Below, piece by piece: positions 10,820 through 42,748 of a stretch of DNA of 64,000 nt. Every line of letters starts with the position of its first letter. Positions within the stretch are counted from its first letter, which is position 1. Below the pieces are notes generated by a model, which searched no databases, was not told the DNA's origin, and was given only the letters and a program-made list of their open reading frames with translations. Both the position numbers and the translations under genes were made by a program. This stretch comes from an uncultured Nitrososphaerota archaeon (GTDB taxonomy: Archaea; Korarchaeota; Korarchaeia; Korarchaeales; Korarchaeaceae). Location: assembly GCA_964618805.1 (NCBI GenBank), contig CAZUBM010000003.1, positions 1 to 64,000 of the forward strand, read 5' to 3'.

Positions 10820-11647
10820 TCACTTAGGTTCAACCTTTATCCTACCAAAACCGACAGTGTTTCCCAGCCCAACACCAACAAACTCACCAAATCTGAGCAA
10901 AGTCCAAGAAATTTTGAGCAATTTTTCGTGCTCATTTTCAGCCCATCCTGGATGCAATATGTGTTTGTAATTGGTCCATCCCAGAAACCCGACAGTGTTT
11001 CTTCCGTCAGGAAGTCTTAGTGGTTTGGATGTGCATAACTCATACCCTGTCTCAGCAAGACTTAGTTGTGCCCATCTTCTGAATTGTCTAGGTTCTATTT
11101 TGGAGTCTGGATTAAACTTCCTCCAATTTGAGGCAAGAGATTGAAAAATGAAGCCTGCTGCTGGAAAGAGAGAGCAATAGGGTGATTGGGCTTTATGAAA
11201 ACATGTGGGTGATATGAAATAAATCCTAAAGCTCCTGTGAGACTCTTCTCCTTCCTCAGAAAAATCAGCTTCACTTACCCTTAGATCAGATATGTCAAAT
11301 GTGATACCTCCTATGGATAGTCGAGGATTCCTAAAAGTCCAAGAACGTAAGATTTGAGGCAATTTCTCTGAATTGCTGACTATTTTGACGAAATATGGGG
11401 CTCCTCTAGTCACATTAATGTCTTGAGATCCGCATCTATAGTCTATCGAATCACTTTCAAGGACGCTGGTTACATGTATGTGAAAGGTCCCTGACCTGAT
11501 TGAGCGGATTAGAAATGGTTCTACAGAAGTTATTGCTTTCATAATTGCAGATCTAACACCTGCACCCGAAAAGGAAAGTAATCCATCGGCCATAGATATG
11601 AGAGAAAGCTTAATCATGAAAAGTTTCATATTCAAGTTTGAACACAC
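10820..11647 (-). CDS. cas6: Cas6-family RAMP endoribonuclease, orphan (start uncertain)
   Basis: FISPTCF, FP....IFQSL...W..F, GFLGW and the C-terminal Gly-rich loop FGEFVGVGLGNTVGFGRI. Confidence 0.8.
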   Translation of the reverse strand: MCSNLNMKLFMIKLSLISMADGLLSFSGAGVRSAIMKAITSVEPFLIRSIRSGTFHIHVTSVLESDSIDYRCGSQDINVTRGAPYFVKIVSNSEKLPQILRSWTFRNPRLSIGGITFDISDLRVSEADFSEEGEESHRSFRIYFISPTCFHKAQSPYCSLFPAAGFIFQSLASNWRKFNPDSKIEPRQFRRWAQLSLAETGYELCTSKPLRLPDGRNTVGFLGWTNYKHILHPGWAENEHEKLLKISWTLLRFGEFVGVGLGNTVGFGRIKVEPK

Positions 11648-12343: not shown

Positions 12344-13417
12344 CTAAGATACAGACCTCCACCTTAGACCTAATTTCTCGGCCTCTTCGTAAGCTTCCTT
12401 CATTTCAGCAGCAGTTGGCCTTCTAGAAATCTCTGGGTATCTTAAAGCTTTGTATTCTGGCCTATATTGAGCCATCACATTAACTAAAGCATTTGGCAAG
12501 TTCTCGGAGATCCATCTCAAGATGGGCTTTGTGCAACATTCGATGTGATTTGGAAGAACAAGGTGCCTTATCACTATCTCTCCTCTTGCCTTGTATGCCA
12601 TCTTCAGGTTCCTCCTGACTACAGTCGTGTAATTTGGTACTCCGCTCAGCTTCAAAGCATGTTCCTCGTCCCAATACTTGAAATCTGGTAACCATAGATC
12701 AACCACCCCTATCAGTAGTTTCATCGATTCCGGTGTTAAGTACATATTAGAGTTCCAAATTATTGGAACGTTCACTTCTGTTAATCTAAGTGCGTCTAAG
12801 ATGGCCGGTATATTAGGAGTAGGTTCACCTCCTACGAGATTTATGTTTCTTGCACCTTCTCTCCTAAGAGAGATAAACATGTTAGAGAGTTCTATTGGAT
12901 TCGCCAATTTACCAGATTTAGGATTTTGTGATATATCCCAGTTTTGACAATAGACGCACCTAAAGTTGCATGAGGAGAAGAATATTGTACCAGATGGAGA
13001 TATGGGGGCTTCCTCTCCCATATGAATGAAGTATGTTGCTACTCTAGGATTCTCACCAACTCTGCAAACACCTAGCTCCCCGCTCGTTCTATCGACAAGA
13101 CATCTTCTCTCGCAAAGCTCACAAGAAGTCAAAATTTTCTTGGCTATCTCTGCCTTTAGATCGAGAAGTGAGTATGGAGGTTTTGGAGGTAGTTCTATGC
13201 TATCAAACGAATCTACAAAATCCCAGAAATCGTTCATGAGTTCATCATGTAGAGACCATAGCTCTTCTAAGTTTGAGCTACGATTTGCTGGAAATCTAGA
13301 GGATATCAAAAATAGGGCAGGCAATCTGTCCTTAACTACTGAAATGTACCTTGGGATTGATGATCTAATCTCTTCATTTTGGAATGCTGTCAGTATGTCT
13401 GTTCTAATCAGCCACAT
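12344..13417 (-). CDS. Radical SAM protein, PflX (PFL-activating-like) family
   Basis: CELCERRC, GEEAPISPSGTIFF, CNFRCVYCQN and GGEPTP. The true start is MWLIR at 13417 because the upstream extension runs through a GC-rich RNA hairpin. Confidence 0.9.
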   Translation of the reverse strand: MWLIRTDILTAFQNEEIRSSIPRYISVVKDRLPALFLISSRFPANRSSNLEELWSLHDELMNDFWDFVDSFDSIELPPKPPYSLLDLKAEIAKKILTSCELCERRCLVDRTSGELGVCRVGENPRVATYFIHMGEEAPISPSGTIFFSSCNFRCVYCQNWDISQNPKSGKLANPIELSNMFISLRREGARNINLVGGEPTPNIPAILDALRLTEVNVPIIWNSNMYLTPESMKLLIGVVDLWLPDFKYWDEEHALKLSGVPNYTTVVRRNLKMAYKARGEIVIRHLVLPNHIECCTKPILRWISENLPNALVNVMAQYRPEYKALRYPEISRRPTAAEMKEAYEEAEKLGLRWRSVS

Positions 13418-13451
13418 ATCTATACCAACCCCATGAAGTTTAAGAAGAATG

Positions 13452-13579
13452 GGCCGCCCGGCGATCGATGGGCCAAGTCCTGCGAGCCAGGGTCGCTGAG
13501 GACGGGCTAAATAGGGCCCGTCTCCCAGCAATGTAACCCTGCCCACTAAGTCAGGCCCAGGACCATGGCGCCGGGCGGC
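13452..13579 (-). ncRNA. Unassigned structured ncRNA, ~128 nt, rod-like
   Basis: GC-rich island with an 11-bp terminal helix GCCGCCCGGCG/CGCCGGGCGGC and nested helices whose G-U pairs work only on the minus strand. A TATA-like CTTAAATA lies ~25 nt upstream and a pyrimidine tract follows. Confidence 0.7.
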
Positions 13580-13601
13580 AATTAATTATTCTTATTACCG
13601 A

Positions 13602-13609
13602 TATTTAAG
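13602..13609 (-). promoter_or_regulatory. TATA box of the putative ncRNA
   Basis: CTTAAATA on the minus strand at canonical archaeal spacing from the first G of the terminal stem (13579). Confidence 0.5.
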
Positions 13610-13823
13610 ATTTAGGTTCAAATTCCTCCCTTTAGAAAATTACCAGTAGGGAGGAAGAGGATTGATCCTAACTCCTCGTTATCGAGGATTATGGCAGTAA
13701 TTATTACATTTCGTCTTTTATTATAGCAAAAGACATTTTCACCAATTATCTTTTCAAGAAACTGAGCATGTACCAAGATTTAAGTGTATGAGTTAAATTT
13801 ATGCTTTATTCAGGATATCTTCG

Positions 13824-14695: not shown

Positions 14696-15223
14696 TTACT
14701 TCTTGAATTTAGCCCTTAGTTCCCTAACAATCCTCCAAAATATGTCTCCAGCATAATGTAGGTTCTTTACACTTTTTCCCCTGCGTTTTAACTCGCTTTT
14801 ATTTCTTAATGCTTGGCCAATAGCTATTACTCTCCCAAACTTCTCGTCCGTTATTAGCACTAGGTCTCCCTCCTTTACTTCACCCTCAATGCCCACTATT
14901 CCTGGACCCATTACATCCGCTCCGTTAGCGATGTGAGGTACTGCCCCTGGATCAACAACTATTCTAGGAAGGCTTAAGTCTGTTCGTTCAGCTGCCTCTA
15001 CATAGGGAACAATGGAGCCATCATAGAGTTCTACCAATACAGGGGAGTTCTCGGAGAGGAAGACCTTCTGCATCCCTTTTCCTGTCTCAAATTCAATTAC
15101 CTCTAACCCTATTTTCCCTTTAGGAAATAAAGGGTTCAACCTTGGATGTTTTTGGAGGACGGATCTTATTAGATCCCGGCTTACGCTTGACTTAAGTCTA
15201 TATCTTCTAGGTTTCCTCTTCAA
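14696..15223 (-). CDS. PUA-domain RNA-binding protein (pre-PUA/DUF1947 type)
   Basis: VVDPGAVPHIANGADVMGPGI and GK.VKNLHYAGD. Confidence 0.9.
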   Translation of the reverse strand: MKRKPRRYRLKSSVSRDLIRSVLQKHPRLNPLFPKGKIGLEVIEFETGKGMQKVFLSENSPVLVELYDGSIVPYVEAAERTDLSLPRIVVDPGAVPHIANGADVMGPGIVGIEGEVKEGDLVLITDEKFGRVIAIGQALRNKSELKRRGKSVKNLHYAGDIFWRIVRELRAKFKK

Positions 15224-15325: not shown

Positions 15326-15402
15326 GCCCCGGTGGTGTAGTCCGGTTAGCATAGGGGCCTGTCGAGCCCCAGACCCGGGTTCAAATCCCGGCCGGGGCGC
15401 CA
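15326..15402 (+). tRNA. tRNA-Asp(GTC), CCA encoded
   Basis: Acceptor GCCCCGG/CCGGGGC, anticodon arm GGGGC-CTGTCGA-GCCCC, T-arm CCGGG-TTCAAAT-CCCGG, G73 then CCA; upstream TTTATATA box. Confidence 0.97.
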
Positions 15403-25465: not shown

Positions 25466-25592
25466 TCGGGGCGCCGGGATTCGAACCCGGGACCTGCCGG
25501 TTTCTGATAGTTCTTGAATGAGCGGCTACCGAAAGGGCTCGGTATCCGCCGAACCCCTACAGCCGGCCGCTCTACCACTGAGCTACGCCCCG
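25466..25592 (-). tRNA. tRNA-Tyr(GTA) with ~55-nt intron at 37/38 (25502-25556)
   Basis: Acceptor CGGGGCG/CGCCCCG (C1-G72, A73), GCCGG-CTGTAG[intron]A-CCGGC and T-arm TTCGAAT; relaxed BHB at the junction. Confidence 0.93.
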
Positions 25593-42624: not shown

Positions 42625-42748
42625 GGGCCCGTAGCTCAGTAGGATTAGAGCGCCGGCCTTCGGAAAGTCTGCGTCTAAAACCGCAGATATTAGAGATTTT
42701 CTACTTGAAGAAAGCCGGTGGTCGCGGGTTCGAGTCCCGCCGGGCCCG
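42625..42748 (+). tRNA. tRNA-Arg(TCG) with 49-nt intron at 37/38 (42664-42712)
   Basis: Acceptor GGGCCCG/CGGGCCC and CCGGC-CTTCGG[intron]A-GCCGG. Canonical BHB with a CTTC/GAAG helix and GGA and AAA bulges; T-arm TTCGAGT; T-tract downstream. Confidence 0.95.

Follow-up and report, generated by a model that had tools for sequence, protein, structure and literature searches.

Klein et al. reportedly recognised, in 2002, orphan non-coding RNAs as G+C islands in A+T-rich hyperthermophiles, HgcC (RF00062) being an example. A different precedent is provided by SreA and SreB of Listeria, riboswitch-derived small RNAs that also act in trans. To our knowledge, the structured RNAs of regulatory or orphan type described from archaea are very few, and Korarchaeota have contributed almost none of them. 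This work deals with a structured RNA encoded on the minus strand at positions 13453–13579 of a stretch of 64,000 nucleotides (nt), hereafter the window (positions 1 to 64,000 of contig CAZUBM010000003.1, assembly GCA_964618805.1, from an uncultured archaeon of the Korarchaeaceae), where it precedes a gene for a PflX-like radical S-adenosylmethionine (SAM) enzyme. As judged from the comparison of related genomes, it is the minimal, rod-shaped genus form of a covariation-supported RNA family, the pflX-leader RNA, of one hot-vent korarchaeal family. Of the known riboswitch classes, very few are used by Archaea, and a census counted one instance for Korarchaeota (McCown et al., 2017, PMC5473149). 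Within the portion of the published literature that could be searched, nothing was found on a korarchaeal pflX-leader RNA, on PflX or on signal recognition particle (SRP) loss in Korarchaeota.

A rod-shaped RNA on the minus strand

The genome that contains the window is G000, a member of genus g1; the genera of the family are labelled g1 to g5. The RNA is closed by a long helix, P1, whose 5′ strand GCCGCCCGGCG (13569–13579, minus strand) pairs with the 3′ strand CGCCGGGCGGC (13453–13463, minus strand), both strands being invariant in g1. The original prediction, made from the letters of the window, had proposed an RNA of about 128 nt; the closed helix ends at 13453 and gives 127 nt, the proposed end at 13452 adding one C. 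All the helices listed in that prediction were recovered: P1 itself (13579–13569 with 13463–13453), TGGGCC/GGCCCA, GTGGGC/GCTCGC, AGGGTT/GACCCT and the upper helix TGCTGGG-A-GACGGGC/GCCCGTC-CTCAGC(G) with its loop CCTATTTA. The apical hairpin, P4 (13501–13522, minus strand), is made of GACGGGC, the loop CCTATTTA at 13515–13508 and GCCCGTC, which reads GACGGGC-CCUAUUUA-GCCCGUC in RNA letters, and it is the sole internal element common to the five genera. Folding of the minus strand with RNAfold gave the same unbranched rod, at −82.1 kcal/mol (z score −5.56), and none of 200 dinucleotide shuffles, with a mean of −57.0 kcal/mol, was as stable. The predicted G+C richness was borne out as well, since the RNA lies in an island of 65% G+C (0.65 at 13450–13549 versus 0.34–0.45 in the flanks) within a genome of 42.5% G+C. 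Further long islands of this kind in the genome (C5:53.7 kilobases (kb) and others) were considered and turned out to be coding or unmatched.

The strand can be assigned with some precision. The plus strand folds at −70.1 kcal/mol (z score −3.6), 12 kcal/mol weaker than the minus strand. The G-U pairs at alignment columns 42/100 and 60/86 are retained in all five g1 sequences, as expected from the claim that such pairs fix the strand, and a covariance model built on g1 (R1) scored the window RNA at 167.8 bits on the minus strand versus 34.6 bits on the plus strand; across the genus, the scores were 148–168 bits on the corresponding strand versus 35–46 bits on the opposite one. Because of the retention of the G-U pairs and the asymmetry of the R1 scores, the RNA is assigned to the minus strand. 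The frame of the downstream radical-SAM gene stays open upstream through the RNA in the window genome (400 amino acids from a GTG). The relative G004 has an open frame of just 358 amino acids for a match of 357 and, because this frame does not extend through the RNA, the region is regarded as non-coding.

The rod is present as a single copy in the window genome, and BLAST recovered it from all four other g1 genomes (G001–G004) at 88–96% identity, with nothing credible in the 36 other relatives searched. When the five g1 sequences were aligned, 99.0% of 210 cells were paired, versus at most 49% with slid partners. Four substitutions in G003 (CAGGGUU to CAAGGAU and GACCCUG to GAUCCUU) move helix 3 by one register and absorb a bulged G, so that the helix is kept. 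Loop sequences vary within the genus; for instance, the bulge UACAU is replaced by GACAC and UACUC in relatives. Searches beyond the assembled relatives added little: four DNA sequencing runs showed only contigs whose variants are those already seen in the g1 relatives, and a search of genome contigs with the apical pattern returned four g1-type records, at least one of them being the contig of G001.

The original prediction had also raised an alternative fold, suggestive of a switch or a pseudoknot. Such a fold does exist in the window genome, but it is not conserved and the idea of a switch built on it is left unsupported. Across the genus, it pairs 83.1% of cells (80% for its helix A) versus 99.0% for the rod and is indistinguishable from shuffles. 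The change at column 40, which is U in the window and C in the four relatives, turns a U-G pair of the rod into C-G and a U-A pair of the alternative into a broken C-A. This change strengthens the rod and breaks the alternative. The alternative fold and the pseudoknot, not being conserved, were rejected.

One RNA family in five genera

The constant downstream partner of the RNA is the pflX-like radical-SAM gene (12344–13417, minus strand), which encodes a protein of 357 amino acids with matches to Pfam Radical_SAM (2.5e-17) and Fer4_12. Its NCBIfam matches to glycyl-radical activases are sub-threshold only, and neither NCBIfam nor PDB, when searched with the enzyme, yielded a function. In databases, the relatives of the protein are named ‘radical SAM protein’ or ‘putative pyruvate formate lyase activating enzyme’, and their source names put the family in Korarchaeota. 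An orthologue, one per genome, was found in 33 of the 36 genomes of the family, at 53–60% identity.

This orthologue search provided the means of finding the RNA beyond g1. All 30 loci that it returned carry, on the strand of the gene and upstream of it, a G+C-rich RNA of 127–154 nt closed by a helix of 8–18 base pairs (bp); G003 makes a 31st locus, and G022 and G017 were added by a second covariance model, R2, built on g3. The RNA ends 13–36 nt before the start codon in g1, g3 and g5, and 92–115 nt before it in g2 and g4. Beyond the family, orthologous loci were inspected in eight genomes, which represent sister families within the order, the class and the phylum as well as four further phyla; the RNA is absent from all of them, and the gene lies behind a plain promoter there. 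The search for homologues and covariation that had been proposed as a check thus came out in favour of the RNA, with four of four g1 relatives, 30 of 30 family loci and compensatory changes in the P1 of the family and in the g3 structure.

Neither BLAST nor the covariance models cross the borders of the genera, except for R2, which reaches weakly into g5. R2 detected 19 of 21 g3 genomes and, weakly, two of four in g5, with none of five in g1, none of five in g2 and none of one in g4; it found exactly one copy per genome, always at the pflX locus. R1 finds g1 only, a weak match in G018 having been dismissed as coding DNA. Because the models do not score across genera, the membership of the window RNA in the family rests on position, strand, promoter, P1 and P4. 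Three genomes of 70–72% completeness (G018, G044 and G047) are without both the 5′ end of pflX and the RNA, and no second natural experiment of the kind described below for G022 was found.

The structure outside g1 is best defined in g3. The consensus of 17 sequences obtained with RNAalifold comprises P1 (13 bp), P2 (UAGCCC/GGGCUA), a variable hairpin P3, P4 (GGGGCC-CNNNAUU-GGCCCC) and P5 (GGCGUCC/GGACGCC), and 97.4% of its 617 cells are paired versus at most 49% with slid partners. Changes on both sides of a pair were seen in four pairs and 12 cells, three of these pairs being in P1; none of 500 shuffles reached the covariation score or the cell count, and five of 500 reached the pair count. 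When 32 sequences of the five genera were anchored on a shared 6-mer, 283 of the 288 cells of nine P1 positions were paired. Positions 1–4 exchange G-C for A-U or C-G for U-A and positions 7–9 vary too, g2 being perhaps shifted there by one base. The shared core of P1 is G(C/U)C(G/A)CC...GG(C/U)G(A/G)C, represented in the window by GCCGCC/GGCGGC. P4 was found in all 32 family sequences as a G+C stem of 6–8 bp with a loop of 7–8 nt that ends in AUU or a close variant, and its stem carries a C-G to U-A exchange in G045, G022, G008 and G011.

While P1 and P4 are constant, the interior differs by genus: it is a rod in g1 and carries four or five hairpins elsewhere. P2, P3 and P5 are missing from g1, where P4 is extended and stacked on two further helices to form the rod. 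The collinear motifs left are CCNUGG, YGGGC and UUAG on the 5′ side and GGAC on the 3′ side. In other words, the side hairpins were lost in the genus of the window, leaving the rod.

These data bear on the simplest alternative, namely that the element, without any RNA function, is a palindrome rich in G+C, the relic of a mobile element or a signal at the DNA level. Its terminal inverted repeats do resemble the ends of miniature inverted-repeat transposable elements, and the closing-stem pattern alone arises by chance in G+C-rich bacterial DNA: all 120 loci that this pattern, which is its own reverse complement, returned from metagenomes were matches of that kind. Single-copy occurrence at an orthologous position in five genera, compensatory changes, strand-specific G-U pairs, a promoter at a fixed distance and the lack of any match to the apical pattern in viral contigs all run against this view, which we consider very improbable.

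Promoter and spacer around the RNA

The TATA-like box that had been noticed about 25 nt upstream of the RNA is TTAAATAT (13601–13608, minus strand; read as 13608–13601), at −29 to −22 from the first G of the closing helix. The alignment of the five g1 genomes conserves CTTAAA(A)TA(T/C)C in all of them, and the DNA farther upstream is not conserved. Every other genus (g2–g5) also has an A+T-rich TATA-like box about 25–30 nt before the closing helix. The predicted RNA gene with its own promoter therefore stands as a structured minus-strand RNA that follows a promoter; its stand-alone status had to be revised, because the RNA is family-wide and fixed before pflX.

The other side of the RNA is less uniform. 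In the window, a spacer of 35 nt (13418–13452, minus strand) leads from the end of the helix to the ATG of the radical-SAM gene and contains a T-rich tract (13442–13450), CTTAAAC (13438–13444) and a Shine-Dalgarno (SD)-like GGGGT (13428–13432). The T-rich CCATTCTTCTT comes directly after the last pair of P1. The two signals that had been read in this spacer are indeed there, TTCTTCTT at 13449–13442 and CTTAAAC at 13444–13438, but the roles ascribed to them are weak: the former, as a terminator, contains at most two T in succession, and neither it nor the latter, as a TATA box of the radical-SAM gene itself, has a counterpart in g2–g5. A terminator (TTCTTCTT) and a separate pflX promoter (CTTAAAC) in g1 are thus possible but unsupported. 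Moreover, the g1 spacer holds no stable or conserved hairpin; its structures differ among the four genomes folded and, at 75 °C, three of the four spacers are unfolded and the fourth, that of G001, reaches −1.1 kcal/mol.

A different layout is found in g3, where the 20–35 nt between P1 and the ATG are G+C-rich, with neither a TATA-like box nor a T-run, and carry an SD sequence (GGUGA/GGUGG) 4–7 nt before the ATG. Since there is no promoter or T-run in this spacer, pflX must be transcribed through the RNA, which is to say that in g3 the RNA is a leader of the messenger RNA (mRNA). Right after P1, a hairpin in which the anti-SD-like CCACCUCC(G)CC pairs with GGUGGAG...GUGG covers the SD sequence together with the start codon and, in the model, withstands 75 °C. 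This is the case in eight genomes (G006, G010, G013, G016, G019, G048, G050 and G051); in the other subclade of g3, the hairpin has 4 bp and is melted at 75 °C, and it is absent in G045. It is absent in g1 as well, and no pairing mutually exclusive with P1 was identified. The longer spacers of g2 and g4 (loci L184–L187 and L201; 92–115 nt) show extra conserved G+C hairpins, CCGGGGGG...CCCCCGG, and the likely start of pflX in g2 is a TTG located five codons before a conserved Trp.

Taken by itself, the g3 layout speaks for a purely cis-acting 5′ leader, which would bind a protein (for example, the PflX-like enzyme or a general RNA-binding protein) or stabilise the 5′ end and so set the translation or stability of the pflX mRNA, with no separate RNA being made. 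This is a realistic though not a favoured explanation. It would account for the same-strand linkage to the pflX start in the 30 loci and G003, for the single copy per genome, for a g3 spacer with an SD sequence 4–7 nt before the ATG and no promoter or T-run of its own, and for the heat-stable SD/start hairpin of the eight g3 genomes. It sits less well with the weakness of that hairpin in the other g3 subclade, its absence in G045 and its lack of conservation in g1, and with the orthologous genes outside the family, which manage with a plain promoter. A further argument against it comes from a genome in which the gene has died.

The RNA is retained beside a dead gene

The strongest individual argument comes from G022, a g3 genome of 92% completeness, which carries a pflX pseudogene at C16:56906–57661 (locus L220:1107–1862). 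The gene is interrupted by stops and frameshifts and has lost about 100 codons, its SD sequence and ATG are gone, and no second pflX copy was found in the genome. The RNA in front of it scores 120 bits with R2 and keeps the TATA box and all five helices; according to the alignment and the folds, its five helix substitutions are C-to-U or A-to-G changes that leave wobble pairs. Compared with the nearest relative, the RNA is 87.4% identical; the remains of the gene reach 65.4%, the 120 nt upstream 70.6% and the intact flanking genes 77.5–78.9%. The margin of 9–10 points over the intact flanking genes lies in the upper part of the range of intact pairs. In three of the closer intact pairs (G045-G042, G045-G024 and G042-G024), the identity of the RNA exceeds the nucleotide identity of pflX by 11–13 points.

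The RNA and its promoter have therefore been kept at normal constraint where gene, SD sequence and start codon are gone, contrary to what a purely cis-acting leader would predict. This retention suggests that the RNA has a role of its own and that selection may act on the RNA itself.

Comparison with catalogued RNA families

The search against Rfam that had been suggested as a check left the RNA without an assignment. With Rfam 15, the window gave at gathering scores only three transfer RNAs (tRNAs), all elsewhere, and positions 13350–13700 gave no match at E ≤ 10, HgcC and the guide families included. In seven loci of g2–g5 searched at E ≤ 1, just the neighbouring tRNA-Asp and its mascRNA shadow appeared. 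The uncatalogued status of the RNA is thus maintained. The statement that it lacks the hallmarks of tRNA, 5S, SRP, RNase P and C/D RNAs was confirmed too, Rfam and ARAGORN being empty at the locus (ARAGORN found no tRNA there) and helix 8 and the C box being absent. A multi-intron tRNA or a 5S RNA was entertained and rejected on the reading of the sequence, on Rfam and ARAGORN, and on the existence of a separate 5S gene at C5:38466–38587 of the same genome, which also has an RNase P RNA at C23:29427–29694.

One of the options first offered, an atypical H/ACA-like guide, failed at this point, as no ACA follows the basal stem and there is neither a kink-turn nor a C box. A guide RNA of this type or of the C/D type would be compatible with a long hairpin with internal loops in an archaeon and with the one internal CUGA. 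However, the stem is followed by the 3′ tail CCAUUC, and the sole ACA, at RNA position 46, lies in an inner bulge. The bulges, UACAU and a single A, form no NNN-GA/GA kink-turn (tandem sheared G-A), and no C box (RUGAUGA) is present. For a pocket built from both strands of the large internal loop, the genome offers no exact target, and the matches with two or fewer mismatches are scattered and unmapped relative to the partly assembled ribosomal RNA genes. Together with loop sequences that vary within the genus and guide families of Rfam without a match, this leaves the guide explanation with almost no credence.

A metabolite riboswitch of a new class, controlling pflX and sensing, for example, SAM, 5′-deoxyadenosine or a substrate or product of the enzyme, was weighed as well. 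Its appeal lies in the fact that the 5′ leader of a radical-SAM gene holds a multi-helix junction, in the conserved junction nucleotides of g3 (CUUAG, GGAA, GAUC and CCCUCCG-AC) and in the SD-occluding hairpin downstream in part of that genus. Yet these nucleotides are not conserved in g1, g2, g4 and g5, and the architecture shifts between a rod and a multi-branched form. No known class matched, either at E ≤ 10 for the window element or at E ≤ 1 for the seven g2–g5 loci, and no genome has a further element of this regulon type at another place. The retention beside the dead pflX of G022 is again difficult to accommodate. P1, moreover, with its 10–18 bp, is far too long and G+C-rich for ligand gating and would form with or without a ligand. 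A riboswitch is accordingly improbable.

A possible role for the RNA

The explanation that we tentatively prefer sees the RNA as selected for an independent function; most likely, it would be a stable small RNA, bound by protein, that is made from the 5′ leader of pflX or ends there. The starting points of this explanation are the fold, its conservation, the position, the promoter, the absence of a known family and the retention beside a dead gene, all of which are established by the comparisons above. The RNA would be transcribed from its own TATA promoter as the first ~130 nt of the pflX-like transcription unit, an anatomy that is seen in the sister genera and that we infer for the genus of the window. 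It would then fold into a very stable domain closed by the long G+C helix P1 and displaying the apical hairpin P4. P4 would serve as a recognition or binding site and P1 as a protective clamp, and the RNA might accumulate as a separate RNA derived from the 5′ untranslated region (UTR). Any effect on pflX translation would be a secondary feature that varies by genus. An interior that has been remodelled while P1 and P4 were kept fits a scaffold with a binding site better than a metabolite pocket. Of the options in the original prediction, a stand-alone stable non-coding RNA and a cis-regulatory leader both survive, then, and they are not exclusive.

Several observations weigh against this explanation. 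The g3 spacer, without an A+T-rich promoter or a T-run and with an SD sequence that eight genomes bury together with the start codon, is what a cis-regulatory leader looks like. The RNA was never found apart from pflX. The T-rich tract of g1 has no T run longer than two, which makes release of the RNA by termination doubtful, and the variation within g1 is too low for changes on both sides of a pair (0 of 42 pairs). The argument from G022 depends on one metagenome-assembled genome, 92% complete, and the excess conservation there is modest, as far as a rough estimate can tell: over 15 intact pairs, the gap between RNA and gene identity runs from −6 to +13 points, becoming smaller or negative where the pairs are most divergent.

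A more far-reaching and, in our opinion, unlikely proposal is that the RNA forms the core of a family-specific korarchaeal ribonucleoprotein, or is a regulatory RNA, that arises from the pflX leader, acts in trans and is needed even where pflX has died. The minimal form in g1, with P1 and P4 on a rod, would then mark the parts that matter. A bolder variant would see in it a new archaeal class of riboswitch or ribozyme.

Neighbouring genes and the SRP pathway

Just upstream of the RNA lie the gene for a PUA-domain protein (14696–15223, minus strand; universal in archaea, arCOG04150-type, 1e-34) and a tRNA-Asp (15326–15402, plus strand). Five loci of g3, g4 and g5 (L196, L204, L201, L206 and L208) likewise have a tRNA at no more than about 1.1–1.4 kb from pflX, which indicates that the order of the genes around the locus is conserved in the family. 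A gene for a Cas6-like endoribonuclease (10820–11647, minus strand; Pfam CRISPR_Cas6, 7.2e-14) lies on the strand of the RNA, about 1.8 kb downstream of it, and no link between the two was seen. Elsewhere in the window, two tRNA genes of 124–127 nt (25466–25592, minus strand, and 42625–42748, plus strand) were detected by Rfam at 60.4 and 58.8 bits and missed by ARAGORN; they presumably contain introns.

A separate observation concerns the SRP. None of the 11 genomes of g1, g2 and g4 (completeness 71–97%) has a detectable SRP54, FtsY or SRP19: PF00448, the GTPase domain of SRP54 and FtsY, gives just P-loop matches of about 20 bits, and neither the M domain of SRP54 (PF02978) nor SRP19 (PF01922) was found in them. 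When the window genome was searched by tblastn with SRP54 from g3, the best match had an E-value of 2.3. SecY was found in 10 of these 11 genomes. The other 32 genomes of the phylum all have a strong match to an SRP-type GTPase, most of them to both SRP54 (about 210–245 bits) and FtsY (about 160–220 bits), with G050 and G051 having one such match each; the M domain of SRP54 was found in 25 of 25 genomes of g3 and g5 and SRP19 in 24 of 25. From these searches, the whole SRP pathway looks absent in g1, g2 and g4.

The RNA component follows the same pattern, no SRP RNA (RF01857) having been found in g1, g2 and g4 apart from one match in G003. In the window genome, RF01857 gave nothing at E ≤ 10, and the helix-8 motif is absent from the rod RNA and from the whole assembly. 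The sole SRP RNA match in g1 (128.7 bits) is on contig G003:C15 (L051, 3073 bases), where it adjoins a tRNA. Outside this tRNA, the contig has no DNA match in G000, G001, G002 or G004, and the one open reading frame tested as a protein (857–1807) was unmatched in G000 and G002; it is probably a contaminant of the G003 assembly. The notion that the rod might be the missing SRP RNA was rejected, since it has no helix-8 features, g3 and g5 possess both the family RNA and a canonical SRP RNA, and the proteins of the SRP are missing as well. Because SRP54, SRP19 and FtsY are missing in the window genome, the rod RNA has no SRP protein to serve. The apparent loss of the SRP is unrelated to the pflX-leader RNA, because the latter occurs in all five genera.

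The pflX-leader RNA among known systems

What is new at this locus is the rod-shaped form, the restriction to one family, the shared P1/P4 core and the pseudogene case. The resulting RNA family is supported by covariation and occupies a fixed place in the genome; nature offers three designs of it (the rod, the four- or five-hairpin form and the extended form) and, in addition, a natural knock-out of the downstream gene. When the designs are compared, P1 and P4 suggest themselves as the functional core, and the 127-nt rod becomes a minimal construct for biochemistry. If the RNA does act on its own, it would represent a lineage-specific archaeal ribonucleoprotein or small RNA. Should it turn out to be a switch, it would stand as a new element of gene control in archaea, acting on a PflX-like radical-SAM enzyme that is widely conserved and uncharacterised, and as a handle on the function of that enzyme.

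With archaeal H/ACA small RNAs, the pflX-leader RNA shares a hairpin with internal loops in an archaeon, and it differs from them by the missing ACA box and kink-turn. The rod-like hairpin of 110–130 nt with a long closing helix recalls the SRP RNA of the bacterial 4.5S-like type; the GNAR tetraloop and the CAGG/AGCA loops of helix 8 are not part of it. The riboswitch-type leaders, with an aptamer closed by P1 and an SD-sequestering platform, resemble it in their place at the start of an mRNA, in the multi-helix domain closed by P1 and, for part of g3, in the SD hairpin. In contrast to them, the pflX-leader RNA has a long P1, a core that is not conserved between genera and an unbranched rod in g1, and it was kept beside a dead gene. 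The HgcC-type RNAs are alike in their discovery as G+C islands, in their size of about 130 nt, in their stable fold and in having no assigned function, whereas the pflX-leader RNA has no Rfam match, is tied to the 5′ end of a single gene and is confined to one korarchaeal family. The small RNAs derived from 5′ UTRs, such as SreA and SreB of Listeria, may offer a further analogy, which we infer from the common arrangement of a structured leader with a possible independent role, and it is this arrangement that fits the RNA retained in G022.

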